64,000 nucleotides of DNA from a virus. The translations under genes were made by a program, and so were the position numbers. Below are positions 4,058 to 62,949 of this stretch, piece after piece (position 1 is the stretch's first letter; each line of letters begins with the position of its first letter). A model generated the notes under the pieces. It did not search any database and had not been told where the DNA came from. It was given only the letters and a program-made list of their open reading frames with translations. Where the stretch lies: IMG/VR virus record IMGVR_UViG_3300045988_177924, one strand, 5' to 3'.

Positions 4058-4507
4058 ATGAGGGACGTTTTATTCAGAGGCAAACGAGTAGATAACGGCG
4101 AATGGGTTTATGGCTTTCTTGTAGAAGCATTAAATTGTGTTACAGACAAAAATGAAACATTTATAATCGAACAAGACGCAACTTATTTTACCTACGGAGA
4201 GTTTGCTTGTGCAGTTGAAGTTAAGACAGAAACCGTTGGGCAATTTACAGGCTTATGTGATAAGAACGGCAAAAAGATTTTTGAGGGCGATATTATTAGC
4301 GCAGTGGCATTAGATACGGGGAAAGAACAAAGGGCGGTTATTGGTTTTGGTAATTTCATAGACGAAAACAACGATGACGAGTATATAGGGTTTTTCATTG
4401 AGTTTGATGGTATTAAGACAACAATCACTCAATTATCAATGGAAGAATGTAAAAATCGCATCGAAGTAATAGGAAATAAATACGACAATAAGGAGAAAGA
4501 AAAATGA
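4058..4507 (+). CDS. YopX-family protein
   Basis: LFRGKRVDNGEWVYG ... ETVGQFTGLCDKNGKKIFEGDII matches the YopX pattern. AGGAG SD upstream. Confidence 0.75.
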   Translation: MRDVLFRGKRVDNGEWVYGFLVEALNCVTDKNETFIIEQDATYFTYGEFACAVEVKTETVGQFTGLCDKNGKKIFEGDIISAVALDTGKEQRAVIGFGNFIDENNDDEYIGFFIEFDGIKTTITQLSMEECKNRIEVIGNKYDNKEKEK

Positions 4508-4914
4508 AATGTCCAAAATGTGGTAAAACAATGTATTCATCGGTAAGCGCAGGCAGCGACACAGCGCGTGGCAATTATATTGATACGAAATATGTATGCC
4601 CTGGGTGCGGCTATGAGGCTAAAAACATAATAGATGTTAACGGTATAGGAATGATAGGAAATTTTGTTCCTGATTATCCCGCAACTAATTATGGGTGGAT
4701 TTGTCCTAAATGTGGCGCGGTATTATCACCGTCAACACAAGAGTGTCCATATTGTACGCCATACAAAGTGACTTGTGGGACAAATAATGAACCTCCTATT
4801 AAAACAGTTCCTTTCAGTAACGACATTACATCGCAAGCACAAGTATATTCGCCACAAACATTAAGAGATAATATAACTGTAACAGGTAGTTATGATTCAA
4901 CATCGCAGGAGTGA
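4504..4914 (+). CDS. double zinc-ribbon protein
   Basis: ATGA overlap with the upstream gene. Contains CPKCG..CPGCG and CPKCG..CPYC. Confidence 0.7.
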   Translation: MKCPKCGKTMYSSVSAGSDTARGNYIDTKYVCPGCGYEAKNIIDVNGIGMIGNFVPDYPATNYGWICPKCGAVLSPSTQECPYCTPYKVTCGTNNEPPIKTVPFSNDITSQAQVYSPQTLRDNITVTGSYDSTSQE

Positions 4915-15202: not shown

Positions 15203-17590
15203 ATGTTTTGTTCTATACACAATCACACAGCCTATAGTAATTTACATTTGAGAGATTCCATCAATCGTATCCCTGAAATGATTAACAAAGCCATTGAATA
15301 CGGCTTTAATGGTTTGGCGATCACTGACCACGAAGTTATTAGTGGTCATATTGAAGCTTTGAATTGTGGGGACAAAATACGTGAAGAACATCCTGACTTT
15401 AAGATTATCCTCGGTAACGAGATTTATCTTATAGACGAAAACGAATATAAAAACGCCGACAAGTATTGGCACTTCATTCTTTTGGCGAAAGACGAAATTG
15501 GCCACAGACAATTGCGTGAGCTTTCCAGTCAAGCCTGGGAGCGCTCCTATATGGAACGCGGACAACGCCGCACACCCACTTTTTATCAAGATTTTGAAAG
15601 AATTATTGGTAAAAATAAAGGACATTTGATTGCCTCTACGGCGTGCGTCGGTGGTCGTTTGGGTACGAGTATTTTACGCAGGGATTCGGATTCAATCAAT
15701 TTCATGATCAATTGGATGGTAGACACCTTTGGTGAGGGAAATTGTTTTTTGGAGATGCAAGACTCCGATTCCGATGACCAACAAGATGTTAACCGTTATA
15801 TCATAAAGTTGTCTGAATTTTTTGGCATACCTTATATTGTAACACAGGATGCCCACTATCTCAACAAGGAAGATCTTTCTATTTTTGAAAAGTTCTTAAA
15901 CAGTAAAGAAGAAAGTGACCGCGAAGTTAACGCGTTCTATAAATACACCTATATAAAACCCGAAGATGAGATTCGTCAAATCTTGTCTTATCTCCCGAGC
16001 GACGTTGTCGACACTGCGATTAATAATACTCAATTAATTTATAATCAAATTGAATACTATGATATGCGCTGCCCCATCATCGTTCCCGAACGTAAATTGC
16101 CAGAATTTCAAGTACGCCACTTGCTCAAGGATTGGTATGAGAGTTGTCCCAACATCAAGTTTTATGCGTATAGTGAATTCCCACAAGATAGATTTTTGCT
16201 TTATTCGATAGAGCAAGGGATTCTTGATAAAAAGTTTGTGGTAGGCAAAGAACAAGCAGAGAGAATAGAGATTGAGCTTTATACGCTTAAAGTGGTTAGC
16301 GACTCTCTTGGCCAACGCATGAGTGCCTATCTCAACTTAGTAAAAGAAATTATCGACATTGCTTGGGAAGTCACCTTCGTCGGCGTGTCAAGAGGCTCCG
16401 CAATGGCTTTTTTGATTAACTATCTTATAGGCATTACACAAGCCAATCCTATGGTGTATAATGTCCCTTATTGGCGGTTCATGAACATCGAAAGTGGGGC
16501 TACTCTACCGGACATCGATTGCGACTTCTCGAACGACAAAGCGCCAGAATTAATGGAAGCCTTGCGCCAACATTATGGTTATGATCGTGTTTTAAACACT
16601 TTAACTTATAAAAGAGAATCATTAAAGTCTGCAATCCTGACCGCTTGTCGTGGTCTCGACATCCCAGTTGACGAAGCTCAACCTTTGTCTGCGATGGTGC
16701 CAATGTCGCGTGGGCACGTGTACACTTTGGAAGAATGTGAAAATGGCAACGAAGAACAAGGATATGAACCCGCTCCCGAACTTATCAAAGCGCTTAAAGC
16801 CTATCCTAATCTTTATGAAACGGTCTGTAAAATAGAAGGGTTAATTTCAGGTGCGGGAGTTCACGCTTCAGCTTGCTATGTGTTCTCTCACGGCTATCTT
16901 GAACATTTAGGAATGATGCGTGCCCCCAATGGAACTCGTATCACTTGCTATGATTACCGTGCGGCAGATCAGGTTGGTTCATTGAAGTTTGACTGTTTAT
17001 ATACCGATGCTCAAACCAAACTAATGAAATGTATAGAGCTGTTGCTTAAAGCGGGCGAGATTCAATGGCAAGGTTCGTTAAGAGCAACTTACAACAAGTA
17101 TTTACATCCTGATGTGCTTGATTATACAAATCCTCAAATGTGGGAAGATATGCAAAATGGCAAGATCGCCAATCTCTTCCAGTTCGAAACTCAAGTTGGA
17201 GCCGTTTGTATCAAACGTACTCGTCCTACGTCGGTTGCGGAACTTGGAGCAGCCAACGCTGTTATGAGATTAATGGGCGAAGAGGGCGAAGAACGCCCCC
17301 TGGACAGATATGTTAGATTCCGTAACGATATCAATGAATGGTACAAAGAAATGGATGAAGCTGGTTTAACTCCTGAAGAACAGCAAGTTCTCAAAGAAGA
17401 GTTGTTGTCCAAATATGGCAATTCTGTTGAACAAGAAGATATGATGCGCTTAGTACAACGTCCTGAAATTGCGAATTTTACTTTGGGTGAGGCAAACTTG
17501 TTACGCAAAGCAGTGGCAAAAAAAGACGCAAAGAAAATTGAGAAAATGAAAAAACGTTTCTTTGAGGCAGTTGACGAAGGGGGAGAATGA
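15203..17590 (+). CDS. dnaE: DNA polymerase III alpha (DnaE-type), N-terminal piece: PHP, palm and fingers
   Basis: PHP motif HNHTAYSNL...AITDHEVISGH at the N-terminus. 795 aa. It ends in the region that normally precedes the (HhH)2/OB part. Confidence 0.85.
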   Translation: MFCSIHNHTAYSNLHLRDSINRIPEMINKAIEYGFNGLAITDHEVISGHIEALNCGDKIREEHPDFKIILGNEIYLIDENEYKNADKYWHFILLAKDEIGHRQLRELSSQAWERSYMERGQRRTPTFYQDFERIIGKNKGHLIASTACVGGRLGTSILRRDSDSINFMINWMVDTFGEGNCFLEMQDSDSDDQQDVNRYIIKLSEFFGIPYIVTQDAHYLNKEDLSIFEKFLNSKEESDREVNAFYKYTYIKPEDEIRQILSYLPSDVVDTAINNTQLIYNQIEYYDMRCPIIVPERKLPEFQVRHLLKDWYESCPNIKFYAYSEFPQDRFLLYSIEQGILDKKFVVGKEQAERIEIELYTLKVVSDSLGQRMSAYLNLVKEIIDIAWEVTFVGVSRGSAMAFLINYLIGITQANPMVYNVPYWRFMNIESGATLPDIDCDFSNDKAPELMEALRQHYGYDRVLNTLTYKRESLKSAILTACRGLDIPVDEAQPLSAMVPMSRGHVYTLEECENGNEEQGYEPAPELIKALKAYPNLYETVCKIEGLISGAGVHASACYVFSHGYLEHLGMMRAPNGTRITCYDYRAADQVGSLKFDCLYTDAQTKLMKCIELLLKAGEIQWQGSLRATYNKYLHPDVLDYTNPQMWEDMQNGKIANLFQFETQVGAVCIKRTRPTSVAELGAANAVMRLMGEEGEERPLDRYVRFRNDINEWYKEMDEAGLTPEEQQVLKEELLSKYGNSVEQEDMMRLVQRPEIANFTLGEANLLRKAVAKKDAKKIEKMKKRFFEAVDEGGE

Positions 17591-17594
17591 ACAA

Positions 17595-19169
17595 ATGGCT
17601 AGAAAAGAGTATCTTGATTATTGTTGGAACCATTTAGTTAAACCGCAAATTGGCTATAGCTTTTCTATTCCTCACGATATTGCTTATAGTATCGAAGCAG
17701 TACAAGAGGCAAACCTTGCTACGCGCTATAATCCCCTCTTTTGGTCGTGTGCTTGCTTGTGTGTGAACGCAGGTTCTTCTGCCACCGATTTCGAAGACAA
17801 TGGTGACGAAGATTATGGTGATGAAGAAAATATCACTTCGCCCTGGGAAACCGATGTCGACGACGATATTAGTGATGCCGACGAGATCAAAAAGACTAAA
17901 TCCGTTCCCATCAACTATCCCAAAATTGCCAAGGCTATCAGCGACGCACAACAAAGCGGTGTGCAAATTATGTTGCCTGATATTAATCTAGCACAGTTAG
18001 ACTTCATTCCCGACATTAAGCACAACGCTATTGTTTATAGTTTGTCGACCATTACTAACATCAACCAAGAGTGGGCTAAGGCCATCATTGCTGGCCGTCC
18101 TTACTCCTCGCTTGAGGATTTTATGAGCCATCTGACACTCACGCCGGTTCAAATGATTTCATTGATTAAAGCAGGTTCTTTTGATGCCATTGAGAACCGT
18201 CCGCGTCAGGCAATCATGCGCTCATATCTCGAAGCGTATGCTCGTACCAAAGTAACCTTTAAAGAAAAGGTAACCACCGTCCATTTGGGTAAAGCTATTG
18301 AGTTTGGTATTGTCCCTGACGATTATAAATCTCACGTTCGCATGTTTAACTATAAAAAGTGGATTGATAAAAACGAGAAACAGGCGGACAAGAAAATCTA
18401 CGCTATCGTCGACCCTGACAGTGTTCAATTCTTTGAACGTTACCTCAAAGATAAAATGGTGTTGGGCAAAGATTACGATACCGTTCCGGCGGGATATACA
18501 TTCAAAACCTCAACTTTTGAGAAAAAATACAAAGAGATTATGGCACCCGTTATGGAGTGGTTTAGCTCCAACGAAGGCCGTCAAGCTTTATATCGTGCGG
18601 AATGTGAAGATGTGGTTAAGTCAATGTGGGATAAATATTGCCAAGGAAGTCTGAGCACGTGGGAAATGTCATCAATGAGTTTCTATTACAGCGGCCACGA
18701 ATTGGCGAATATGAAATCGCTTGCATATAATCTACGTTCTTTTAAAGACCTCCCCGAAGAACTCAAACCTCTTAGGATGAAAACGCTTAAAAGCGGCAAA
18801 GAAACTCCCGTATACGATGTGGTTGGTATTGCTGGCACTGTGGTCGGCGCTAATAATAATAAACATATTGTGACCTTACTCACCCCAACGGGCGTGGTAG
18901 ATGTCAAGTTTTATGCCGAGGCTTATATTCATTATAACAAGAATATTAGTACGGTGGATACCAATGGCAAGAAAACAATGATTGAAAAATCTTGGTTTAC
19001 ACGCGGTAATAAATTGCTTATATATGGCGTACGCCAAGAAAATATGTTTTTACCAAAGACCGATTATGATAAGGGTATCCGTCATTCGGTTAATTTAATT
19101 GAATCATGCTCGAGCGAATATCCCAAACTAAAATTCGAGCGTGAAAAAACAAAGAATTCGTCACAATAA
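17595..19169 (+). CDS. dnaE: DNA polymerase III alpha, C-terminal piece
   Basis: ATG 17595 lies 4 nt after the upstream TGA and behind GGGGGAG, in a different frame. The sequence GYSFSIPHDIAYSIEAVQEANLATRYNPLFW matches the DnaE segment Y.FNKSHS.AY....Q.A.LK..YP.EF. Confidence 0.8.
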   Translation: MARKEYLDYCWNHLVKPQIGYSFSIPHDIAYSIEAVQEANLATRYNPLFWSCACLCVNAGSSATDFEDNGDEDYGDEENITSPWETDVDDDISDADEIKKTKSVPINYPKIAKAISDAQQSGVQIMLPDINLAQLDFIPDIKHNAIVYSLSTITNINQEWAKAIIAGRPYSSLEDFMSHLTLTPVQMISLIKAGSFDAIENRPRQAIMRSYLEAYARTKVTFKEKVTTVHLGKAIEFGIVPDDYKSHVRMFNYKKWIDKNEKQADKKIYAIVDPDSVQFFERYLKDKMVLGKDYDTVPAGYTFKTSTFEKKYKEIMAPVMEWFSSNEGRQALYRAECEDVVKSMWDKYCQGSLSTWEMSSMSFYYSGHELANMKSLAYNLRSFKDLPEELKPLRMKTLKSGKETPVYDVVGIAGTVVGANNNKHIVTLLTPTGVVDVKFYAEAYIHYNKNISTVDTNGKKTMIEKSWFTRGNKLLIYGVRQENMFLPKTDYDKGIRHSVNLIESCSSEYPKLKFEREKTKNSSQ

Positions 19170-19199
19170 GTTGACAACAGGAGCTTTTTGTGTTAATAT
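19158..19199 (+). promoter_or_regulatory. sigma-A-type promoter with upstream GTCA half-site
   Basis: TCGTCA 19158-19163, N7, TTGACA 19171-19176, N17, TAATAT 19194-19199. Confidence 0.7.
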
Positions 19200-19226
19200 G
19201 AATTCAAATTGCAAGCAGAGGTAGTA

Positions 19227-21584
19227 ATGGACGCAAATTACGCATTGGCCGCATCGTCGGCTTTTGAAGATAAAGTTAGATTAAAAGTACGAGTTGAAAG
19301 GATTATTTATCCCAAAAATGGTCAAACTTCCGGTAGTTGGACCATTGCTGCTTTTCGTATTGAGGAAGTGCTGGAGGGAGAGGTTCCAGAATGCTTTCAG
19401 TGGTCTTTACGTTTTACTGCCAAGGGCTCGATGCCTGCGTTAAATGCACGTGACACTTACACAATGGTTGCTCATCTTGTCGAAGACGCCAAATACGGGT
19501 TGCAATACGAAGTCGATTTGATGTGTCTTGATTACGACTTGACCGATAAAGATGACCAACTTAAATTTTTCTCTTTCTTTTTAACTCCAACACAAACTGC
19601 GGCGTTATATGAGAATTGCGATAATCCACTGGTGCTGTTACAAAACCACGACACGAAAGCCTTAATGAAAATAAAAGGTATTGGCCCGGTGACAGCGCAA
19701 CGTATGATTAACAAGTACGAGGACAGTAAAGACTTAAGTCTCGCATTTGTTCGGTTTTATGATCTAGGGTTAACGAAGGGTGCGATTGAGAAATTGGTGC
19801 ACTTTTATGGTTCTCCTGAGGCGGCGGTCGAAGTTATCGAAAAGAATCCGTATTTGTTAATTATTCAAGTGCCTGGTTACGGATGGGCTAAGGCAGACGC
19901 TATAGCGATGTCACAAGGACTTGCTCACGACTCTGATGAACGTATGGGCGCCTATCTAGTACATTATCTCAGAGAACAAGCAGAGATGAACGGCAACTCT
20001 TGGGTAAGCGTCGAAGACTTGTGCGTGGTTATTGACCAGGTGTGCGACCCACACAACGATGAGCGAATTTATGAACTTATTCGTCGTAATATTAAAAATC
20101 ACGTTTTGTATTATGATAAAGAAACTGAACGTGTTGGGTTAATGGAATACCGTGAACTTGAACAACAAATCGCCAATGAGATACTTCGTATTCAACGCGG
20201 CGCAGCTCATATTGAGATTAACCCAGAACGAGCCGAAACAATAATTCGCAGCGTGGAACTAGAACAAGGCTTCGAATATACTGAGGAACAGCGAACCGCG
20301 ATTTGGAACACTTTGAACAATCAGTTCAGTATTTTGACGGGTGGGGCCGGATGCGGCAAGACTTCGGCCGTAAACGGCATCGCTCACGTCCTCGAAGCCC
20401 ATAATTTCCGCGTTGCTCAAGTGTCCTTATCAGGTCGTGCTGCCTCTAAATTGACAGAAATAACTCATATTGAAGGAAAGACCATTCACCGGTTACTTAA
20501 GTACGATCCAGAGTCAGGTAAATTTTTGCACAATAAAGAGAACCCCTTACCATATGACATCATAATCGGTGACGAAGTATCAATGTGGGGTGGAGAAATT
20601 ACCCTTTCTTTGTTACAAGCAATCCCCACCGGCGCCAAAGTGTTATTTATTGGTGATACCAAACAGCTTGAAGCAATTGGGTTAGCCAGCGTTCTCACCG
20701 ACACAATTAAATCACACACGATGCCAACTGTCCAGTTAACAAAAATACAACGACAACAGGCAGATAGCGGCATTATCACACAATCACTTAAGGTTGCATG
20801 TGGAGAACAAATTGTGGGGCCGAAAACCAGTGGTGTTGAATATCGTGGAGTTCGTAAAGATTTTAAACTCGTTACTTATATTGATAGTGCTTTGACACAA
20901 TCAAAAATTATTGACGAGTTTAAGGAACTTTATATTAACCAACACGTTCCAGCAAATGACATCCAGGTGTTAGTTCCGATGCGTAGTCGAGGCGAGGCCA
21001 GCTGTAGAGCGTTAAACCTAGCCATTCAAGAGATTGTCAACGGTACGCCCAGTGTGGATGAAATAACAGTACCATATACCGACGGGAACTATAAATACAG
21101 TTATACGTACCGTCCTAATGATCGAATCATCATTATGAAAAACAACTACAAGACCATCAATATAGAAGGCAACAAAGAACCTATCTATAATGGGAATGTA
21201 GGTTATATTAAACAAATTGGACCTGATTTTATGATTGTCAATTTGACAGAGCAAGGTGATATTGTTTTGGGAGCAGAGGATTATAACAACCTTTCTTTAG
21301 GATATGCTATCACCGTGCATAAAAAACAGGGCGACTCATCCCCGTATGTAATCGGAGCTATCGACAGCTCGTCATACGCTCTAATGTCCAAAGAATTGCT
21401 GTACACAATGATTACTCGAGCTCGTAAATATTGCGTTTTGATTGGACAGAAGAAAATTTTACAACAAGCAGTCAAAATTAGTCGTGTGAAAACAAAACAA
21501 ACCTGGCTGTGCGAGCTTTTACAAGAAGCGACAAAACCAAAGGAGTATTTAGATGACCAAAAAGTGTCAATTACCCAGCTCTAA
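19227..21584 (+). CDS. recD: RecD/RecD2-like SF1 helicase
   Basis: HhH segment MKIKGIGPVTAQRM, Walker A GGAGCGKTS, Walker B IIGDEVSM, plus FIGDTKQL and ITVHKKQGDS. Confidence 0.85.
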   Translation: MDANYALAASSAFEDKVRLKVRVERIIYPKNGQTSGSWTIAAFRIEEVLEGEVPECFQWSLRFTAKGSMPALNARDTYTMVAHLVEDAKYGLQYEVDLMCLDYDLTDKDDQLKFFSFFLTPTQTAALYENCDNPLVLLQNHDTKALMKIKGIGPVTAQRMINKYEDSKDLSLAFVRFYDLGLTKGAIEKLVHFYGSPEAAVEVIEKNPYLLIIQVPGYGWAKADAIAMSQGLAHDSDERMGAYLVHYLREQAEMNGNSWVSVEDLCVVIDQVCDPHNDERIYELIRRNIKNHVLYYDKETERVGLMEYRELEQQIANEILRIQRGAAHIEINPERAETIIRSVELEQGFEYTEEQRTAIWNTLNNQFSILTGGAGCGKTSAVNGIAHVLEAHNFRVAQVSLSGRAASKLTEITHIEGKTIHRLLKYDPESGKFLHNKENPLPYDIIIGDEVSMWGGEITLSLLQAIPTGAKVLFIGDTKQLEAIGLASVLTDTIKSHTMPTVQLTKIQRQQADSGIITQSLKVACGEQIVGPKTSGVEYRGVRKDFKLVTYIDSALTQSKIIDEFKELYINQHVPANDIQVLVPMRSRGEASCRALNLAIQEIVNGTPSVDEITVPYTDGNYKYSYTYRPNDRIIIMKNNYKTINIEGNKEPIYNGNVGYIKQIGPDFMIVNLTEQGDIVLGAEDYNNLSLGYAITVHKKQGDSSPYVIGAIDSSSYALMSKELLYTMITRARKYCVLIGQKKILQQAVKISRVKTKQTWLCELLQEATKPKEYLDDQKVSITQL

Positions 21585-21589
21585 TAGAG

Positions 21590-21797
21590 CGCGAGTTTAC
21601 TCACTAGTTGATCAGACTAAGCGTTAAGCTACGTTATCAAAGAATATATAGGCACCGTAGGATGTACTCTCCAGTCTTACGCTCTGCGGTATGTGATTAA
21701 ACAGTTCTGATGGGTAGGAACAGTGTTGCATACATTAAACCTTTGAATAACATTGTCGTGGAGTAACCACTCTAACATATAGGAGGCTATAAAAGCA
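21590..21797 (+). ncRNA. candidate omega RNA (HEARO-type) of IscB
   Basis: Established IscB loci encode a ~200-nt omega RNA immediately 5' of, and running into, the iscB start. This ~210-nt interval has no ORF. The call is positional, and I did not verify a fold. Confidence 0.4.
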
Positions 21798-22928
21798 ATG
21801 GTATATGTATTAAACAAACAAGGCAAACCATTAATGCCTTGCAAAGAAGCAAAGGCAAGAAAATTGCTAAAACAACACAAAGCAAGAACAGTAAAATACG
21901 AACCGTTTACAATTCAATTACTATTTGATTGTGAAAATCAGACACAGGACATCGCTCTTGGGGTTGATGCCGGAAGTAAGTACATCGGTGTTTCTGCAAC
22001 AACGGAAAAACAAGTGCTGTATGAAGCTGAAGTTGAGTTAAGAAACGATATCGTAGAGAAATTGTCGTCTCGTCGCGAAGCTCGTAGAACTCGTAGAAGT
22101 AGACTAAGATATCGTCCAGCAAGATTTAACAATCGTGTCCATTCAAAACACAAGGGCTGGCTAGCTCCCAGCATTGAGCAAAAGATAAATGCGCATATTC
22201 AAGTTATAAGACACTTATATGAGATTTTGCCGATAACTAAACTTATTGTCGAAACCGCTCAATTCGATATCCAGAAGATAAACAATCCCGAAATATCGGG
22301 AGAAGAATATCAACAGGGTAATCAATTAGGTTTCTGGAATGTAAGAGAATATGTATTGTTCCGCGATAACCACGAATGTCAATGTTGCCACGGTAAATCA
22401 AAAGATAATGTATTAAATGTACACCATCTTGAAAGTCGCAAAACCGGTGGCAATGCGCCAAATAATTTAATCACTTTATGTGAAACCTGTCATAAAGCTT
22501 ATCATAAAGGCGAAGTTGAATTAAAGCTCAAACGTGGTAAAAATTATCGAGATGCTGCATTTATGGGTATCATGAGGAAAACCTTGTTGCTAAGATTAAA
22601 CCAAACATATCCGAATGTTCATGAAACCTTTGGATATGTTACGAAAAACATAAGAATCGAGAATGGTCTGCCTAAAGAACACCATGTCGATGCGCGGTGT
22701 ATCAGTGGCAATCCTTTGGCGAAACCCTTGGAATATTATCTTTATCAAAAATGTGTCAGAAGGCAAAATCGGCAGATTTATAAAAATAATTTGTGTAAAA
22801 ATGGGCGAAAGATAAGCAATCAACTAATTGGCGACATTTTTGGATTTAAATTATTTGATACTGTGAAATATCAAAATAAACAATATTTTGTTTTTGGTAG
22901 GCGCAAATCGGGATATTTTAAGATCTAA
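21798..22928 (+). CDS. iscB: IscB RNA-guided nuclease (PLMP, split RuvC, bridge helix, HNH)
   Basis: GKPLMPC (PLMP motif); GVDAGSKYIG (RuvC-I); RREARRTRRSRLRYRPARFNNR (bridge helix); WLAPSIEQK..IVETAQFD (RuvC-II); HECQCCHG..NVHHLESRKTGG..NLITLCETCH (HNH); EHHVDARC (RuvC-III); GFKLFDTV..GRRKSGYF (C-terminal domain). Confidence 0.85.
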   Translation: MVYVLNKQGKPLMPCKEAKARKLLKQHKARTVKYEPFTIQLLFDCENQTQDIALGVDAGSKYIGVSATTEKQVLYEAEVELRNDIVEKLSSRREARRTRRSRLRYRPARFNNRVHSKHKGWLAPSIEQKINAHIQVIRHLYEILPITKLIVETAQFDIQKINNPEISGEEYQQGNQLGFWNVREYVLFRDNHECQCCHGKSKDNVLNVHHLESRKTGGNAPNNLITLCETCHKAYHKGEVELKLKRGKNYRDAAFMGIMRKTLLLRLNQTYPNVHETFGYVTKNIRIENGLPKEHHVDARCISGNPLAKPLEYYLYQKCVRRQNRQIYKNNLCKNGRKISNQLIGDIFGFKLFDTVKYQNKQYFVFGRRKSGYFKI

Positions 22929-23028
22929 AATTTTAATGAGACAAGGGTAAACAATGGTTCTATTAGTTGTAAAATATTAACAAAAATTAGGCACAACACA
23001 ACCAAATTAACAGAAAGGAGAATGTATT

Positions 23029-23670
23029 ATGTATAATAAGTGTGAAGATTTTACTAATCTTGAGGACCTTACAGTTGAATTGGGGAAACTTGGGCAAGTT
23101 AGTCCCCTTCCTAGTTTGAATGAATACGAAACCTATCTCGATCTCAACGAACGTATTATTTATATCGATTTCGATATCGACGACACTCTTATTGAGTACT
23201 CTCGTCGAATCATTCGTTGGAATCGCCAAGATAAGGATATACCCGTCGAAGAACGCAAACCCATTAAAGTTTTAGTAAATTCTTATGGTGGGAGTCTGGA
23301 CGCTTGCTTGCACTTCATTGACACTCTGTTGCTGAGTAAGACTCCGGTGTACACTTACAACGTAGGTGTAGCAATGTCGGCTGGGTTCTATATCATGCTC
23401 GCTGGTAGCCAGCGTTTTGCGTATCCTAACGCTCAGTTCTTAATCCATAGCGGTTCTGGCGGTGCTGCGGGAACCTATGAACAAAGCAAAAGCCAAATGG
23501 AACACTATACGCGATGTGTAGAATTACTGAAAAAATATGTCCTCGATAGAACCACTATTCCAGAAAAGATATATAATAAAAAAAGAAGCACAGAGTGGTT
23601 TATTTGGGCAAAAGATGCTATAGAGTTAGGTATCATCCACGGACTGGTTTCGTCGTTGGATGAAATTTAA
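23029..23670 (+). CDS. clpP: ClpP-family (S14) serine protease
   Basis: VNSYGGSLDAC...VGVAMSAGFYIMLAG...FLIHSGSGG...AIELGIIHGLV parallels ClpP (INSPGG, catalytic Ser in xxSxG, IHQP, EA..GLID). Confidence 0.8.
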   Translation: MYNKCEDFTNLEDLTVELGKLGQVSPLPSLNEYETYLDLNERIIYIDFDIDDTLIEYSRRIIRWNRQDKDIPVEERKPIKVLVNSYGGSLDACLHFIDTLLLSKTPVYTYNVGVAMSAGFYIMLAGSQRFAYPNAQFLIHSGSGGAAGTYEQSKSQMEHYTRCVELLKKYVLDRTTIPEKIYNKKRSTEWFIWAKDAIELGIIHGLVSSLDEI

Positions 23671-23679
23671 AAAAGTTTT

Positions 23680-23721
23680 TTGTCATTATGTGTTGACAAT
23701 TTTCCAAAAGTGTGCTAATAT
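23680..23721 (+). promoter_or_regulatory. sigma-A-type promoter with upstream GTCA half-site
   Basis: TTGTCA 23680-23685, N7, TTGACA 23693-23698, N17, TAATAT 23716-23721. Confidence 0.75.
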
Positions 23722-23750
23722 CAGTGTATAAACAACAAGTGAGGTACACT

Positions 23751-24038
23751 ATGGAAAATTGCAACGCAACAAAACACGGATTAGAAAGAGTGATTCAACG
23801 CTCAAATTGTAAAGACGCTGTCGCATATATCGACAGAGCATATCGCAACGGTAAAAAGCCTAACACGTTTACGCATCCCAAATTTCGTAAGTATTTACAA
23901 AAGGTCGCGTCTCGTTCTTGTATAGACGCAGAGCTCAGGGTATTCGGGAATCAAATCTTCGTGTTTAGCCCAACTGCTGAACTAATCACAGTTCTGGACA
24001 TTCCAGATACATATGGGATACACAAGTATCGCAAGTAA
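23751..24038 (+). CDS. hypothetical protein (95 aa)
   Basis: ATG 23751 follows GAGGT. The ORF-track GTG at 23712 lies inside the promoter. Confidence 0.55.
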   Translation: MENCNATKHGLERVIQRSNCKDAVAYIDRAYRNGKKPNTFTHPKFRKYLQKVASRSCIDAELRVFGNQIFVFSPTAELITVLDIPDTYGIHKYRK

Positions 24039-27377: not shown

Positions 27378-27452
27378 AGGTTCTTAGTTTAATGGTAAAA
27401 TATCGGTCTCCAAAACCGTAAGATCTGAGTTCGAATCTTAGAGGGCCTGCCA
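27378..27452 (+). tRNA. tRNA-Trp (anticodon CCA)
   Basis: Hand-folded cloverleaf. Acceptor AGGTTCT/AGGGCCT (two G-U pairs), anticodon loop CTCCAAA, T-arm CTGAG-TTCGAAT-CTTAG, encoded CCA end. Confidence 0.8.
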
Positions 27453-27473
27453 ATAGAATAATATTTTTGCTAA

Positions 27474-27558
27474 TGCCGAGTGGCGAAATTGGTAGACGCA
27501 CCAGATTTTGATTCTGGCGACGAAAGTCTTGGGGGTTCAAGTCCCTCCTCGGTAGCCA
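27474..27558 (+). tRNA. class II (long variable arm) tRNA with anticodon UUG; isotype ambiguous
   Basis: Acceptor TGCCGAG/CTCGGTA, Leu-like D-arm TGGCGAAATTGGTAGACGC, anticodon stem CCAGA/TCTGG with loop TTTTGAT, 13-nt variable arm (GAC-GAAA-GTC), T-arm GGGGG-TTCAAGT-CCCTC, discriminator G, encoded CCA end. Confidence 0.7.
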
Positions 27559-27578
27559 CTATAACTATGGAGGTTTAT

Positions 27579-27740
27579 ATGATTGACGATAAGCCTGTAA
27601 TTGTTACAGACCCTAAGAAAATCAAAGAGATTAAAGAAGCACTACAATCAAGTATGGTGTATACCGAAGATATTGCACCAGCCATCCCATCTCCGCTGCC
27701 TGAGAACGCGGCGGAAATGTGGTTTGGTAAAAAGAAATAA
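27579..27740 (+). CDS. hypothetical protein (53 aa) between tRNA genes
   Basis: ATG 27579 lies 5 nt after GGAGG. The longer ORF-track version (27480) runs through the tRNA. Confidence 0.45.
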   Translation: MIDDKPVIVTDPKKIKEIKEALQSSMVYTEDIAPAIPSPLPENAAEMWFGKKK

Positions 27741-27741
27741 T

Positions 27742-27825
27742 GTGACCGTGGCGGAATTGGCAGACGCGCCAGCCTTAGGAGCTGGTATCACAGATGTGTG
27801 AGTTCGAGTCTCACTGGTCGCACCA
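27742..27825 (+). tRNA. tRNA-Leu (anticodon UAG)
   Basis: Acceptor GTGACCG/TGGTCGC, D-arm TGGCGGAATTGGCAGACGC, anticodon loop CTTAGGA, long variable arm, T-arm GTGAG-TTCGAGT-CTCAC, discriminator A73, encoded CCA end. Confidence 0.85.
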
Positions 27826-27944
27826 CGGCGACACGACAAATGGTCGCCCGACTGACAAAAATCGTATGTGCAGTGATAGAGCATAGGTTACTAACTAATT
27901 CGCGGTAAGTTAATGTAACAAGGTACTCAAAGTACAAGAGTACG

Positions 27945-27981
27945 GTAGTAGTTTGGAAACGGTTCTACTACAAAATTTTTT
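27945..27981 (+). terminator. possible intrinsic terminator
   Basis: GTAGTAG (27945-27951) pairs with CTACTAC (27965-27971), followed by AAAATTTTTT. Confidence 0.4.
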
Positions 27982-28048
27982 AACGGGGCTCTCCAGAAAA
28001 TGCTCCCAAAATCCGGGATGTCAGAAGTATGGGCGGCCCCATTTTCTT

Positions 28049-28124
28049 CGGGGTGTAGCGCAGCTGGGAGCGCGTATGGCCTGGGACCATAAGGTCGCAC
28101 GTTCGAATCGTGTCACCCCGACCA
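28049..28124 (+). tRNA. tRNA-Pro (anticodon UGG)
   Basis: Acceptor CGGGGTG/CACCCCG, D-arm GCGC-AGCTGGGA-GCGC, anticodon stem TATGG/CCATA with loop CCTGGGA (position 33 is C), T-arm GCACG-TTCGAAT-CGTGT, discriminator A73, encoded CCA end. Confidence 0.8.
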
Positions 28125-28406: not shown

Positions 28407-29444
28407 ATGACAAAACGAAAGCTACACATTAATATCAACCTTGACAAAGATTTTGTCACTACACTTAAACACCTAAACAGAAAATACGGCGACCAAATGT
28501 GTTATCTCAACGGCTTAGCCGACAAACAAATTAATTATACAGAGTTCATCGATCAATTTGTGAAGTCTACATCAGTTGCCGATGCTTCTATTGACAGCAA
28601 CGCCAATATAGACCATAAAGATATCACGACGCTCGAAAACGAAATGTCAAAGCCACATTCTAAGCTACTTGCTTTCCATAAAATCTTCTATGAAATGAAG
28701 AAGAAATACGGTCTCAAAGAAGCAAAGAGATGGGCGGAAGAAGAGTGGAACGGCGGGTTCTATTTGCACGATTTTTGTTCGGCCACGTTCCGTTCCTATT
28801 GTTTCGCTTATGATCTAACCCCACTCGTAAACAAAGGGTTGTTCTTTGTTAACAATTTCAACGCGCAGCCACCCCAACATCTAACAACCTACACGGATTT
28901 TGTTGGAGAAATGGTAAGCTGGTGCGCAAACAGAACGTCCGGTGCTGTTGGTCTTCCCAACTTCTTGATTTATAGTTTTTATTTCTGGAAGAAAGATTGT
29001 GAGAACAAATACTATCTCCATTCTCCCGAATATTACCGCGACCAAGAATTCCAGCGTATTATTTATAAACTGAATCAACCTTACCTGCGCGTTACGCAAA
29101 GTGCATTTACAAACTTTTCTATCTTTGACCGCGAATACCTTATGGCGCTGTTCGGCGGAGTAGAGTATCCCGATGGAACGTGTGTGATTGACTACATCGA
29201 CGAACTCATCGAATATCAAAAAGCCTTTATGGAAAAGGTTAGTGAAATTCGTTCAATCAACATGATGACGTTCCCGGTGCTCACCTATGCTCTTCTTCGT
29301 ATCGACGGCAAATTCGTTGATGAAGATTTTGCCAAATGGTGTTGCAAACACAATATGAAATGGGCCGACAGCAATTTCTTTATAAGTAAAGATGTTACCA
29401 GTCTTTCAAACTGTTGTCGCCTTGTGAGTGATGTTAAAAATCTT
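28407..29444 (+). CDS. nrdD: anaerobic ribonucleoside-triphosphate reductase NrdD, exon 1 (3' boundary within about 10 nt)
   Basis: Ends in the conserved NCCRL motif (..SNCCRLVSDVKNL), after which the frame hits a stop inside the intron. The continuation is found at ~30387. Confidence 0.8.
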
Positions 29445-30386
29445 GGGTGAAGATTAAAAAGATGCCCTTTAATCCCTTTTCTGGTTTATCACCAGGGTCG
29501 CATAAGCGGCTAACGGGGAACCCTAAGTTCCATTGAATATGGGAATCCCGTGGGAAGGAGAGTGAAATATGCAAAAAGCTATTTACAAAATTACAAATCA
29601 AGTTAACGGGAAGAGTTATATTGGACAATCCGTGAATCCAGAACGTCGTTTTATTGCACATAAATCGCATGCTAGGAATCATGATTTTAGCTCTTCACAA
29701 ATTTTATATTTCGCAATATTAAAATATGGCGAAGAAAATTTTAAAATGGAAATTCTCGAGTGGACAGAGAATTACAACGAAAAGGAACGTTATTACATAC
29801 AATATTATAATACATTGGCTCCAAACGGTTATAATATTGCCAAAGGTGGTGACGATCCGCCGCGATTGTTGGGAGAAAATCATCCTCGTTCAGTGGTTTC
29901 CAATAAACAGGTTGATATCATCATTGCAGAACTGAAACGAGGTGTGTTAACAGAACCACAAATAGGAAAGCTGTTTAACCCACCCATTCGACAGCCTGTG
30001 ATTCATAATATTAATTTTGGAATCACTTATAAGCGACAAAATGAGGTTTATCCCATTCGAACACAAGGTCCTTACAACTTGTCCACAATTCAACTTGATA
30101 ATATTATTTGGCTTTTGCAAAATAGCCTCTGTACAATGCAAACAATAGCAGATTATTTTAACTTTAATGTTAGCACAATAAAAGCTATTAACACCGGTCG
30201 TAATCATTTCAACCCCGAACTTGATTACCCCCTTCGCAAGTTCAAAGGCACCGCACACTCTCAACCTGTAGAGACTATCCTGGCCAACAGGAGTACGCTT
30301 ATTATTGATACATAAGCGGAAATGGGGATTTGCGACAATTGACCTTGTCGTATAAGAGATAGCCCAGCCCGTTTGGAAACATACGG
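29445..30386 (+). mobile_element. group I intron carrying a GIY-YIG homing endonuclease gene (boundaries approximate)
   Basis: It interrupts nrdD between CCRLVSDVKNL and SPDFNSIGGTALEVGSVKVNTINLARIA. The joined sequence aligns with my recollection of T4 NrdD (CCRLINDAELL...NSFGGG...GSHRVVTINFNRIA). The exon ends in U and the intron ends in G (30386). The HEG sits in a peripheral loop. Confidence 0.7.
29569..30315 (+). CDS. intron-encoded GIY-YIG homing endonuclease (I-TevI-like architecture)
   Basis: IYKITNQVNGKSYIGQS..RRF.AH forms a GIY-YIG core. A C-terminal HTH-like segment reads MQTIADYFNFNVSTIKAINTGRNH. AAGGAG SD upstream. Confidence 0.85.
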   Translation: MQKAIYKITNQVNGKSYIGQSVNPERRFIAHKSHARNHDFSSSQILYFAILKYGEENFKMEILEWTENYNEKERYYIQYYNTLAPNGYNIAKGGDDPPRLLGENHPRSVVSNKQVDIIIAELKRGVLTEPQIGKLFNPPIRQPVIHNINFGITYKRQNEVYPIRTQGPYNLSTIQLDNIIWLLQNSLCTMQTIADYFNFNVSTIKAINTGRNHFNPELDYPLRKFKGTAHSQPVETILANRSTLIIDT

Positions 30387-31331
30387 AGTCCTGATTTTAA
30401 TTCCATCGGCGGAACCGCCCTCGAGGTCGGCTCTGTCAAAGTTAACACAATTAACTTAGCTCGCATCGCATACGTTACAAAAGTATGGAGCGAGAAAAAC
30501 CACATCACCAACAAAGCACAAATTAAAGCCTATTATCTTGACTTGCTCAAATCGAAGGTTAACCTGTGTTTAAGAGTGCTTGACCGTGTGCGTTCAATCA
30601 TTGCTCGCAATATTGAAAAAGGATTGCTCCCCAATTACACACTCGATCTCATTCACCTCAAGTCCCAATACAATACAATCGGAATCACAGGTTTATGGGA
30701 AGCAATCAAGCACTTAAACGGCACATATGTCGACACTCTTGGTAACGCGAATTACACGCCAAGCGGCCTTGAATTTGCCACCGAAATCCTCGCTGCCATT
30801 CATGATGCAAAAGACCTGTTTATCCAGACAGAAAAGGTAGATTATCAAATCAATATTGAACAAGTACCTGCTGAACGCTGCGCGACTATTTTACAAGAAA
30901 AAGACAAACTCTTGTACGCAAATGGCGAATACGATCTTCCTCTTTATGGTAACCAATGGATTCCGCTGGCGACGCACACTTCGCTCCATAATAAAATGAT
31001 AGCGAGCTCAACTCTCGACGCGGCTTGTAGTGGTGGTTCGATTGCGCATATTAACATCGACGCGCCCCTCTCAGACTTCGACACAGCGTGGAAACTTCTC
31101 AACACTGTGGCCGACTTTGGAGTCCCGTATTTTGCCTTCTGCACCCGCATCAGCGCGTGTAAAAATAACCACGGTTTTTACGGCGACATCTGCCCAATCT
31201 GTGGGGAACCCGTCGAAACAACTTACCAACGCATTGTCGGATTCCTGACGCCGGAAAAAACATATTCCAAAGAGCGTAAGGCGGAATTTGCAAAACGCGA
31301 CTGGTTTTCGGTGAACTCTGATGAAAATTAA
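30387..31331 (+). CDS. nrdD: NrdD exon 2 (5' boundary within about 10 nt)
   Basis: The frame is open from 30363. Contains FNSIGG..GSVKVNTINLARIA, a Zn site CKNNHGFYGDICPICG, and the glycyl-radical motif QRIVGFL near the C-terminus. Confidence 0.8.
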   Translation, partial: SPDFNSIGGTALEVGSVKVNTINLARIAYVTKVWSEKNHITNKAQIKAYYLDLLKSKVNLCLRVLDRVRSIIARNIEKGLLPNYTLDLIHLKSQYNTIGITGLWEAIKHLNGTYVDTLGNANYTPSGLEFATEILAAIHDAKDLFIQTEKVDYQINIEQVPAERCATILQEKDKLLYANGEYDLPLYGNQWIPLATHTSLHNKMIASSTLDAACSGGSIAHINIDAPLSDFDTAWKLLNTVADFGVPYFAFCTRISACKNNHGFYGDICPICGEPVETTYQRIVGFLTPEKTYSKERKAEFAKRDWFSVNSDEN

Positions 31332-60343: not shown

Positions 60344-60490
60344 AATGATTCTCCTTTCTATGCCATTAGTCTTCGATTAGCAAGATTTTTATTTTACGAA
60401 GATGATGCCATTATGAACACCATGAGCGCCACCCTCCTAAGAGGGCAACGGACTTGCACCGTTCACGCTTTCGCGCGGGCCTTGCGGTGA
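60344..60490 (-). ncRNA. structured leader element A (family of three)
   Basis: Starts directly after the TAA of the upstream gene. UCACCGCAAGGCCCG, CGC-GAAA-GCG hairpin, GUGA, AACGG-UGCAAGU-CCGUU, CCCUC-UUAG-GAGGG hairpin, GGCGCUCAUGGUG. No SD-led ORF. Confidence 0.5.
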
Positions 60491-60982
60491 TTAACTCTCG
60501 TAAGATTCGAGAGCGTCCTCCAAATAATCAGTTCTTGCTCTTTCGAGCAAGAGTGATTTGGTAAGGGCATTCTTTTTGCCCTTGGTTGCTTTGAGCTCAT
60601 CTTCGGTGAGCGATGCGACAACTGTCGCTTGCGGCGTGAGTAAGACACCTTTCTTATAATCAATATAAGTTTCGGTGTCGATTTCGCTCTCGGCAGAGGT
60701 TACAATCTCATCAACGTTGTAGCCTTTAGTTAGAAGCATGAAACAAGAGGTCATCATGCTTTTTGCCTTATCGCTGTCGCCGGCGCAAACATCGATGCAA
60801 ATCTGCGCGAAGTGCACAGCAGCTTGCTTGTCGGCCTCGCCGTTGTAGCAGAATTTTTCTTTGCTGCCATCGGGAAACTCGATTGTTTCGATGCCGAGGT
60901 TGATATTCCCATCTGCTTTCATTGCGTCGAGGGCGTTGATGATGTTGGGGGTTGATACAGTTTGATTGATTTTAATTGACAT
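60491..60982 (-). CDS. hypothetical protein
   Basis: AGGAGG SD upstream. 163 aa. Confidence 0.7.
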   Translation of the reverse strand: MSIKINQTVSTPNIINALDAMKADGNINLGIETIEFPDGSKEKFCYNGEADKQAAVHFAQICIDVCAGDSDKAKSMMTSCFMLLTKGYNVDEIVTSAESEIDTETYIDYKKGVLLTPQATVVASLTEDELKATKGKKNALTKSLLLERARTDYLEDALESYES

Positions 60983-62560: not shown

Positions 62561-62706
62561 AACGGTTTCTCCTTTCCCTGCCATGGGACCCCTAGCAATA
62601 ATAAAGTTTTTCGGGGACGGTGTCGTTATGCCCACCATAAGCGCCGCGTATTTCTACGCATCGGACTTGCACCGATCACCTCCGAGGGGGCGGGCCTTGC
62701 GGTGAT
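62561..62706 (-). ncRNA. structured leader element B (family of three)
   Basis: Starts 1 nt after the upstream TAA. AUCACCGCAAGGCCCG, CCU-CGG-AGG hairpin, GUGA, AUCGG-UGCAAGU-CCGAU, GCGUA-GAAA-UACGC hairpin, GGCGCUUAUGGUG ... CUAGGGGUCCCAUGGCAGGGAAAGGAGAAAC. Confidence 0.5.
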
Positions 62707-62949
62707 TTATTTTAGTATTTCGCCGAAATTGTCGGTGACAAGTTGTTTGGCGACATCCGTCAAGTGGTGGATACACTTGCTGTAAGTCTCCGTTTTGCCT
62801 TCGACTTTAGCCCTGTATTCGGGCGTTATGGCGAAGGAAATTTTGGTGGCATTGGACATTTCTTTATCGAGTTGGGTGTTTACCCATATGACAAAATCGT
62901 TGACAAAGCCAACGATTGCCGCGATTTGGTCGGCGGTATAATTTTTCAT
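62707..62949 (-). CDS. hypothetical protein (80 aa)
   Basis: ATG 62949 follows AAGGAGG. Confidence 0.6.
   Translation of the reverse strand: MKNYTADQIAAIVGFVNDFVIWVNTQLDKEMSNATKISFAITPEYRAKVEGKTETYSKCIHHLTDVAKQLVTDNFGEILK

Follow-up and report, generated by a model that had tools for sequence, protein, structure and literature searches.

Cas9 probably descends from IscB, whose role in nature is still being clarified. In a stretch of 64,000 nucleotides (nt) of phage DNA (IMG/VR virus record IMGVR_UViG_3300045988_177924; this whole stretch is called the window below), an iscB gene preceded by its omega RNA lies between a helicase gene and clpP, and this element is compared here with the closest described systems and with related elements of sister phages. 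Homing by OMEGA nucleases (OMEGA for obligate mobile element-guided activity) is established for chromosomal elements that work with the transposase TnpA (PMC10055086) and, as a 2026 review summarizes it, for TnpB on plasmids (PMC13565253). For both IscB and TnpB, published experiments show that they can re-establish a transposon at the site from which it was excised. The 2026 review treats homing into co-infecting phages only as a possibility in theory (PMC13565253). No description of IscB homing into phages was found in our literature search, which is not proof that there is none.

OgeuIscB (PDB 7UTN, 7XHT, 8CSZ) has the same domain order and catalytic residues as the window protein, and it also uses an upstream omega RNA of about 205 nt with a 5' guide and a target-adjacent motif (TAM) 3' of the target. 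OgeuIscB has 496 aa, whereas members of the window family have 412–426 aa, being about 30 aa shorter after the bridge helix and about 40 aa shorter at the C-terminus. The alignment between them is only local (E about 1e-45), the C-terminus of the family cannot be aligned by sequence to the P1D/TAM-interacting domain (TID) of OgeuIscB, and the window allele lacks the last 36 residues in addition. The IscB of ISGst from Geobacillus stearothermophilus (Meers et al. 2023, Nature 622:863; PMC10055086) is similar in arrangement. Its omega RNA side abuts the transposon right end and the TTCAT motif lies 5' of the left end, which reads as ATGAA directly after the element on the iscB strand, and D58/H209/H210 there correspond to D57/H209/H210 here. 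The role proposed for it is cutting of the empty site, which triggers recombinational re-copying of the element. In contrast to the window element, ISGst is chromosomal and is excised and re-inserted by TnpA of the same genome, so its homing is 'restorative' and directed to the sister chromosome; the window element has phage carriers, no TnpA nearby and a lost hairpin end, and would be directed at a co-infecting relative.

For the IS605 TnpB gene drive (Mears et al. 2025, bioRxiv 10.1101/2025.02.20.638934, as summarized in PMC13565253), 'non-restorative homing' is described, in which an OMEGA element invades homologous empty sites of co-resident replicons with the help of its nuclease and without TnpA; according to this summary, the case differs from ours in concerning TnpB instead of IscB, plasmids instead of phages, and an experiment instead of a natural population. 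The free-standing homing endonuclease genes of phages, such as seg and mob of T4 (intronless homing; review PMC13565253), resemble the window element in that they lie between conserved genes, are present or absent in close relatives, show co-conversion of their flanks and pass through a cycle of invasion, decay and loss, and GIY-YIG genes of this kind exist in the same window. Unlike these genes, whose target is read by protein, the window element would read its target through a flank-derived guide RNA, and it would tell self by its own presence and by a recoded duplicate. IscB/HEARO loci without TnpA have been known in viral contigs since 2022. In the available text of Goltsman et al. 2022 (Nat Commun 13:7602, PMC9755519), over 16% of HEARO-encoding fragments are derived from viruses or prophages and few are linked to TnpA. 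The window locus is one such case, a truncated and hairpin-less allele of a known family; insertion sites, empty alleles and phage decay are not analysed in that text. HEARO is also listed in Staphylococcus phage genomes.

We consider it probable, with moderate confidence, that the window element is a non-autonomous, TnpA-less IscB-omega RNA member of the ISC/HEARO branch of IS200/IS605, that it spreads between co-infecting phages by homing, and that the window copy is decaying; this judgement is a joint one and is built on sequence comparison. The locus itself is almost certainly a genuine IscB with its omega RNA. The open reading frame (ORF) at 21798..22928 (+) encodes 376 aa and is preceded by 213 nt (21585..21797) after the stop of a 791-aa ORF. 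The guided_IscB equivalog NF040563 (NCBIfam, "RNA-guided endonuclease IscB") matched it with 370 bits against a cutoff of 175, Pfam gave RRXRR (PF14239, 225 bits, aa 2–174) followed by HNH (PF01844), and a phmmer search of PDB matched OgeuIscB and other IscB chains with E of 1e-45 to 1e-47. As in IscB, an HNH insert splits the RuvC domain, a PLMP domain lies at the N-terminus and there is an Arg-rich bridge helix. The order is PLMP (11–14), RuvC-I (D57), Arg-rich helix (92–109), RuvC-II (E152), HNH (C194/C197/H209/H210/N223/C228/C231/H232/H236) and RuvC-III (H295/D298). The RuvC and HNH catalytic residues are complete and align with those of OgeuIscB; D57, E152, D298, H209, H210, N223 and C194/C197/C228/C231 are invariant in 57 homologs, and H295 is nearly so (at least 90%). 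The Rfam model HEARO (RF02033) matched just upstream over its whole length (positions 1–211) with 120.1 bits (gathering score 83, E 1e-25), and this is the single HEARO in the 64-kb window.

The first-pass annotation of the window, which was made from the letters alone, had named an IscB locus without TnpA between recD-like and clpP-like genes, and the profile searches agree with it: Pfam gives a RecD2-type helicase and ClpP on the two sides, and no Y1 transposase (TnpA) or serine recombinase family was matched among the 61 small ORFs of the window. The checks which it proposed, a search with the HEARO model and an alignment to OgeuIscB, gave the full-length omega RNA and the intact catalytic residues described above. 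Its placing of the omega RNA in the 213-nt ORF-free gap was right in that both the gap and the RNA are real, and wrong in confining the RNA to the gap, as the RNA starts inside the helicase ORF. Of the full IscB signature that it had claimed, the motif order stands and the C-terminus does not, where 36 conserved residues are gone. A plain protein-guided HNH homing endonuclease with a fortuitous likeness to HEARO was considered as another identity of this locus. GenBank labels the phage homologs as 'HNH endonuclease' or hypothetical, which would suit such a protein; the split RuvC (D57/E152/H295/D298), the PLMP domain, the bridge helix, the strong equivalog and PDB matches and a full-model HEARO 37 bits over the gathering score refute it, and its probability is practically negligible. 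Type II Cas9 was rejected as well, because the local match to Cas9d had 25.8 bits against a cutoff of 375, and a protein of 376/412 aa is not of Cas9 length with a recognition (REC) lobe.

The insertion site was defined by sister phages. A helicase search of IMG/VR gave eleven contigs of the same phage family, and at this junction (site 1) the insert is lacking from seven lineage-A phages, whose helicases are 93–99% identical to that of the window at the aa level, and from the lineage-B phage L005 (74%). In these empty sites the 3' end of the helicase gene overlaps the start of clpP (…GGAGTATGCAGATGACCAACAAGTGTGAAGAG…), and homology to the window breaks at the first base or two of HEARO; the L003-type empty site, for example, reads TAGATGACCAACAAGT and then GTGAAG. 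The ends, which the first-pass annotation had expected to come from relatives lacking the insert, were set by these eight empty-site phages, and the insert measures about 1.45 kb, from 21566 to about 23013–23043. The element is thus precisely present or absent at the same locus, as homing genes are, and filled alleles occur in both lineages.

The filled allele of the second lineage, the intact site-1 allele P0001, was found on L094–L096 in ENA metagenome assemblies, one of them labelled pig gut; no filled site-1 allele was found in IMG/VR. These contigs contain the same element with the same recoded right copy of the flank, and their flanks belong to the L005-like lineage B. The flanks share about 75% identity from one lineage to the other, versus about 90% for the element, which includes blocks at 100%. 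The clpP gene of the window is 82–84% identical to that of the lineage-A empty-site phages in its first 45 nt and 96–100% identical after them, and the differing bases match lineage B. The tract is single and lies on one side, which is supportive of co-conversion and not decisive. This mosaic suggests the trace that co-conversion would be expected to leave in recombinational copying. Because the element is in two lineages although it lacks the end hairpin, without which TnpA could not move the site-1 version, a recombination-based spread is favoured. The earlier suggestion of a homing-type selfish element fits the empty sites, the second-lineage copy and the co-conversion tract; as to what drove the spread, we infer from these comparisons that it may have been IscB cleavage and not ordinary phage recombination.

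A different account makes the element a passive passenger, moved by ordinary homologous recombination or by a host TnpA acting in trans, with the nuclease being irrelevant. Phage genomes recombine freely and the element is a mosaic of blocks with 82–100% identity; gut Bacillota genomes hold numerous members of this family that share its end architecture, implying that a functional transposase exists somewhere; and canonical relatives lie precisely beside ATGAA, as insertion by a transposase gives. However, the presence of the immovable hairpin-less element in two lineages does not suit transposition. Compared with the intact allele of L096, the window iscB has 67 synonymous and 34 non-synonymous codon differences, so the protein has been under purifying selection, which is hard to square with an idle nuclease. 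TnpB-driven, TnpA-independent spread of IS605 among plasmids is also reported (Mears 2025, as given in PMC13565253). We regard the passive account as quite unlikely.

In the homing reading that we prefer, the guide of the omega RNA would be the 16 nt of host DNA left of the element. An intact IscB-omega RNA complex from an element-bearing phage would cut the empty allele of a co-infecting relative, and repair from the element-bearing genome would copy the element in, giving homing without a transposase. Two things would spare the bearer: its guide match abuts the scaffold instead of the motif, and the right-hand duplicate of the clpP start is recoded (7/16 mismatches). The window copy would be past its active phase; its end hairpin is lost, and a recent C-to-T change has produced a stop at codon 377.

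The putative guide, TAGATGACCAAAAAGT, is helicase coding sequence, and the helicase ORF extends 19 nt into the omega RNA; the guide length of 16 nt is an assumption by analogy with characterised IscBs. No second match to TAGATGACCAAAAAGT at up to 3 mismatches exists in the window. The guide lies outside the element, in flanking DNA, and 11 related elements have 11 different left flanks; since the left flanks differ at every site, the guides differ too. On the other side, 34 of 57 distinct right junctions start with ATGAA, whereas in these loci only 23.5% of ordinary gene starts do (p = 6e-9), and bacterial copies show the same pattern. With such a motif, the elements therefore lie directly before start codons, in the orientation of the downstream gene. 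In the empty allele of site 1 the guide match is followed by GTGAAG, and in the verified empty allele of site 2 by ATGGAA. We take GTGAAG to be acceptable as a target motif. In the window, the guide-matching sequence is followed by the omega RNA scaffold and not by the motif, and the right-hand copy keeps GTGAAG with its mismatches to the guide. Among the empty-site phages (L001–L006, L010, L011; 800-nt span), diversity peaks over the 20-nt protospacer, with 9 variable sites versus about 1.5 on average, and the four TAM-proximal bases AAGT and GTGAAG are invariant. This peak is suggestive of escape from targeting, or only of weak constraint at gene ends.

The ends of the window element are unusual for IS200/IS605. 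In canonical relatives, the far end is a two-tier hairpin whose internal loops (ATTCCTCC / GTTTCCTT) are conserved and which is followed directly by the start codon of the next gene, and 9 of its 10 predicted pairs keep pairing through two-sided changes in 21 relatives. This hairpin is absent in the window, where no secondary structure is predicted at 23014..23043. Hairpins at both ends, which the relatives have, are therefore reduced to the first omega RNA stem on the guide side. A Y1 (HUH) TnpA is missing in and near the element, as is usual for non-autonomous IS200/IS605 members (PMC10055086; likewise in the available text of PMC9755519). Instead of a short target motif without duplication, the window has the GTGAAG empty allele and an imperfect duplication of about 30 nt, whose left and right copies align with z = 4.8 against shuffles. 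The left junction has a 2-nt GT overlap. The duplication is lacking in 24 of 26 tested elements and is present only in the window (site 1) and in L014 (site 4), so it is not a general trait of hairpin-less elements. In the empty allele of each of these two sites, the upstream gene runs over the start codon of the downstream one; in both cases the two genes are kept whole by the duplication, and there is no end hairpin. Staggered-cut fill-in was set aside as its source, 30–37 nt being too long; the duplication may stem from a canonical insertion before ATGAA that was later rearranged under selection, or from a one-sided recombination with an illegitimate join.

In canonical elements (L016, L020–L022, L027 and others; for example L021 4200–4280), a conserved GGAGG stands just before the end hairpin and the next ATG stands 8–12 nt after it. 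Folding of the hairpin in mRNA could bring this Shine-Dalgarno sequence beside the start codon and so make an insertion before a gene harmless. In some canonical copies the iscB stop overlaps the ATG of the next gene (ATGA).

The first-pass annotation had described the window protein as a compact IscB of 376 aa. This description fails, since the gene is a nonsense-truncated allele (Q377*) of a family of 400–442 aa and its intact frame has 412 codons. The closest homologs (78–91% identity, full query coverage) have 409–436 aa, and 67 of 71 distinct phage-borne copies have 400–442 aa; bacterial copies (24 checked) mostly have 410–431 aa, with two being shorter. No natural family of about 376 aa exists among these 71 phage copies or 24 bacterial copies. 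The 91%-identical P0001 continues for 36 conserved residues beyond the window stop, and the 35 lost codons can still be read in the window DNA, with some purifying selection on the tail codons. The ancestral frame ends at the stop 23034–23036, which is the end coordinate that had been given for the locus earlier, and the conserved GAAAGGAG within its residual tail is the ribosome-binding site of clpP. On these comparisons, a single CAA-to-TAA change truncated the window gene. The stop is of recent origin, judging from the last 300 nt of the element (22743–23042), which are 97–100% identical to the intact allele. An assembly error is ruled out as its source because exactly the same protein is encoded on 15 contigs. 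Recoding or readthrough of stop codons was also rejected: in the four disrupted copies the stops stand for Q, Q, E and L, and their positions are unrelated, which indicates random decay, the other window genes are long ORFs under the standard code, and the four phage tRNAs include no suppressor.

The lost 36 residues belong to a C-terminal, beta-rich region in the position of the TID, and the C-terminal (P1D/TID) region of the window protein is incomplete. The tail may be the counterpart of the solved TID, onto which it could not be mapped: a profile of the C-terminal 79 residues gave only noise against PDB (E 0.03 or worse, no IscB chain), the full-length family profile stops aligning to OgeuIscB at about residue 334, and the AlphaFold2 model of the intact 412-aa protein (57-sequence alignment) had a mean pLDDT (predicted local distance difference test) of 44.7 and was not used. 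Deletion of the TID abolishes the preference of OgeuIscB for double-stranded DNA (dsDNA) (bioRxiv 10.64898/2026.03.03.709405), and the window copy is probably inactive on dsDNA and decaying.

The truncated protein might instead still be an active RNA-guided dsDNA nuclease, used for homing or against empty-site sister phages. Its catalytic residues, PLMP domain, Arg-rich helix and omega RNA are intact, the allele is on 15 contigs, and the diversity peak over the protospacer looks as if targets escape cleavage. However, the missing tail has many nearly invariant positions and is kept by every intact relative, its codons show some purifying selection, and the TID deletion result cited above speaks against dsDNA activity. 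In addition, the stop is too recent for tolerance or adaptation to show, sister copies are visibly decaying, and weak constraint at gene ends would explain the diversity peak too. Continued activity of this allele is therefore judged unlikely. An exapted function is very improbable. Here a TID-deficient IscB would act on single-stranded DNA (ssDNA) or RNA, such as helicase/clpP transcripts or the replication intermediates of competitors, or the omega RNA would itself be regulatory. In line with this, an engineered TID-less OgeuIscB binds ssDNA and single-stranded RNA exclusively (bioRxiv 10.64898/2026.03.03.709405), omega RNAs outlast broken or deleted iscB genes (L001, L015, L017, L019), and the guide matches the helicase/clpP mRNA of the phage itself. 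In contrast, the stop is a single recent point change with the downstream frame unchanged, sister copies are broken by stops at unrelated positions (codons 144, 276 and 317, replacing Leu, Glu and Gln), which points to random decay, and the phage and bacterial copies checked hold no natural family of this length.

Related elements sit at no fewer than four (at least four) gene junctions of the phage family, and the window is the empty allele for sites 2, 3 and 4. Site 2, at the junction of clpP and the next gene, is filled in L001 by an element whose omega RNA scores 140 bits and whose iscB is cut to eight codons; it is empty in the window at 23735–23756, where the protospacer ACAAGTGAGGTACACT is followed by ATGGAA. 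This copy (L001 9067–9395) is a solo omega RNA that keeps the end hairpin. Site 3, at helicase codon 20, is filled in L006 by an element whose IscB is 44% identical and which supplies a new N-terminus to the helicase; it is empty in the window at 19254–19277. Site 4, filled in L014, is empty in the window at 4490–4532, where ORFs 4058..4507 and 4504..4914 overlap. At the 3' end of the helicase gene of L009 (8265–8405), the first 80 nt of an omega RNA are fused to the end hairpin, giving a miniature like a miniature inverted-repeat or palindrome-associated transposable element (MITE/PATE).

Sigma-70-type promoters with a perfect -35 hexamer (TTGACA-N17-TAATAT) are present at 23693–23721 and 19171–19199, upstream of sites 2 and 3. 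The -10 hexamer of the former ends about 14 nt short of the site-2 protospacer and that of the latter about 55 nt short of the site-3 protospacer. Where these sites are filled, in L001 and L006, the promoters could drive transcription of guide and omega RNA.

For the family as a whole, we propose tentatively, at somewhat less than even chances, that its elements are transposase-independent RNA-guided homing genes. They would target start codons (ATGAA), bring their own ribosome-binding site for the gene downstream, and, at overlapping genes, use the recoded overlap duplicate both to keep the two genes intact and to block self-cleavage. The window with its sister contigs would record the whole cycle, from invasion, lineage transfer and the escape of targets through the lost transposon end and decay by nonsense mutation to the solo omega RNA and the miniature remnant.

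Several points weigh against homing of the window element followed by decay. The evidence is all comparative, and neither cleavage nor homing was observed; presence or absence at one site with a mosaic flank can also be explained by ordinary phage recombination. The flank duplication of about 30 nt fits no known IS200/IS605 mechanism, as Y1 transposition duplicates no target. GTGAAG departs from the family consensus ATGAA at the first position. The known empty sites all mismatch the guide at 1–5 positions, no natural empty site matching it perfectly was found in IMG/VR, and the complementarity of guide and target arises by construction and is no proof alone. A promoter scan gave nothing convincing just upstream of the site-1 omega RNA; this RNA would need to come from processing of the helicase transcript or from a promoter that the scan cannot recognise. 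The lost tail could not be mapped onto the solved TID, and the truncated allele persists on its 15 contigs.

In IMG/VR, 221 stretches encode relatives of the window IscB clade; GenBank has 37 phages with unnamed homologs, and gut Bacillota genomes have many IscB copies at 54–69% identity. With four mapped sites at which alleles are filled or empty, intact, decayed or reduced to remnants, and with defined guides and motifs, this phage family is a natural test bed for phage homing. The window gene is a truncated allele and not a new hypercompact editor, and mining for tools would be better served by the 412-aa P0001. The features of the locus are collected in the table.

Table. Features of the iscB element and its flanks in the window (positions counted from the first letter of the window)
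Feature	Position	Strand	Basis or remark
RecD2-type helicase, left flank	19209..21584	+	Pfam HHH_RecD2/AAA_30/UvrD_C_2 on the identical gene in L012
Left copy of imperfect direct repeat, AAAGGAGTATTTAGATGACCAAAAAGTGT; native overlap of helicase end and clpP start	21539..21567	+	One difference from the L003 empty site, few from others
Putative 16-nt omega RNA guide, TAGATGACCAAAAAGT	21550..21565	+	Directly 5' of HEARO position 1; junction set by empty sites
Omega RNA scaffold (HEARO), also guide-side transposon end	21566..21770	+	RF02033; homologous omega RNAs 5' of nearly all related iscB
Shine-Dalgarno sequence of iscB, GGAGG	21782..21786	+	Seen in the letters, 11 nt ahead of the iscB ATG (21798)
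iscB, nonsense-truncated allele, 376 codons + TAA	21798..22928	+	NF040563, PDB matches, catalytic residues
Premature stop TAA	22926..22928	+	CAA (Gln377) in the 91%-identical intact allele P0001 / L096
Residual in-frame tail of ancestral iscB, 35 codons + TAA, NFNETRVNNGSISCKILTKIRHNTTKLTERRMYYV then stop	22929..23036	+	Alignment, translation, codon comparison
Right repeat copy, AAAGGAGAATGTATTATGTATAATAAGTGT; recoded clpP ribosome-binding site and start	23014..23043	+	Replaces end hairpin; also in the lineage-B filled allele
clpP, right flank	23029..23670	+	Pfam CLP_protease; first ~45 nt (23029–23075) resemble the other lineage

The last six codons of the helicase gene (SITQL and the stop, from 21568) are supplied by the element, and the helicases of empty-site relatives end in QQV or QKV before the stop. 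In L011 (6001–9327) the helicase match spans 3327 nt versus about 2358 nt, which implies an insertion of about 1 kb in that gene (an intron, an intein or another mobile gene). The element is hosted by a gut phage that is uncultivated, measures about 140 kb and is a distant relative of SPbeta, and a megablast of 19200–24000 against GenBank phages gave no match. The surrounding replication module contains a split DnaE polymerase, a PD-(D/E)XK nuclease, ThyX, a Dam methylase and NrdD. Two adjacent ORFs on the plus strand encode the DnaE-type polymerase, 15203..17590 (PHP/pol3-alpha/finger) and 17562..19169 (HHH_6), and its nearest cultured relatives are in SPbeta-like Bacillus phages at about 40% protein identity. 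The nrdD gene is split into 28407..29450 and 30543..31331 (both +, both Pfam NRDD) by a free-standing GIY-YIG gene at 29569..30315, and two small ORFs of the window have SegE-type GIY-YIG Pfam matches. Four tRNA genes lie at 27378–28124 (+), for Trp-CCA, Gln-TTG, Leu-TAG and Pro-TGG, of which the Gln tRNA is unusually long (85 nt). Two matches to the self-cleaving Twister-sister ribozyme (RF02681, gathering score 34) were found at 60413–60492 (-) and 62628–62707 (-), scoring 71 and 54.5 bits, and they lie between minus-strand genes.

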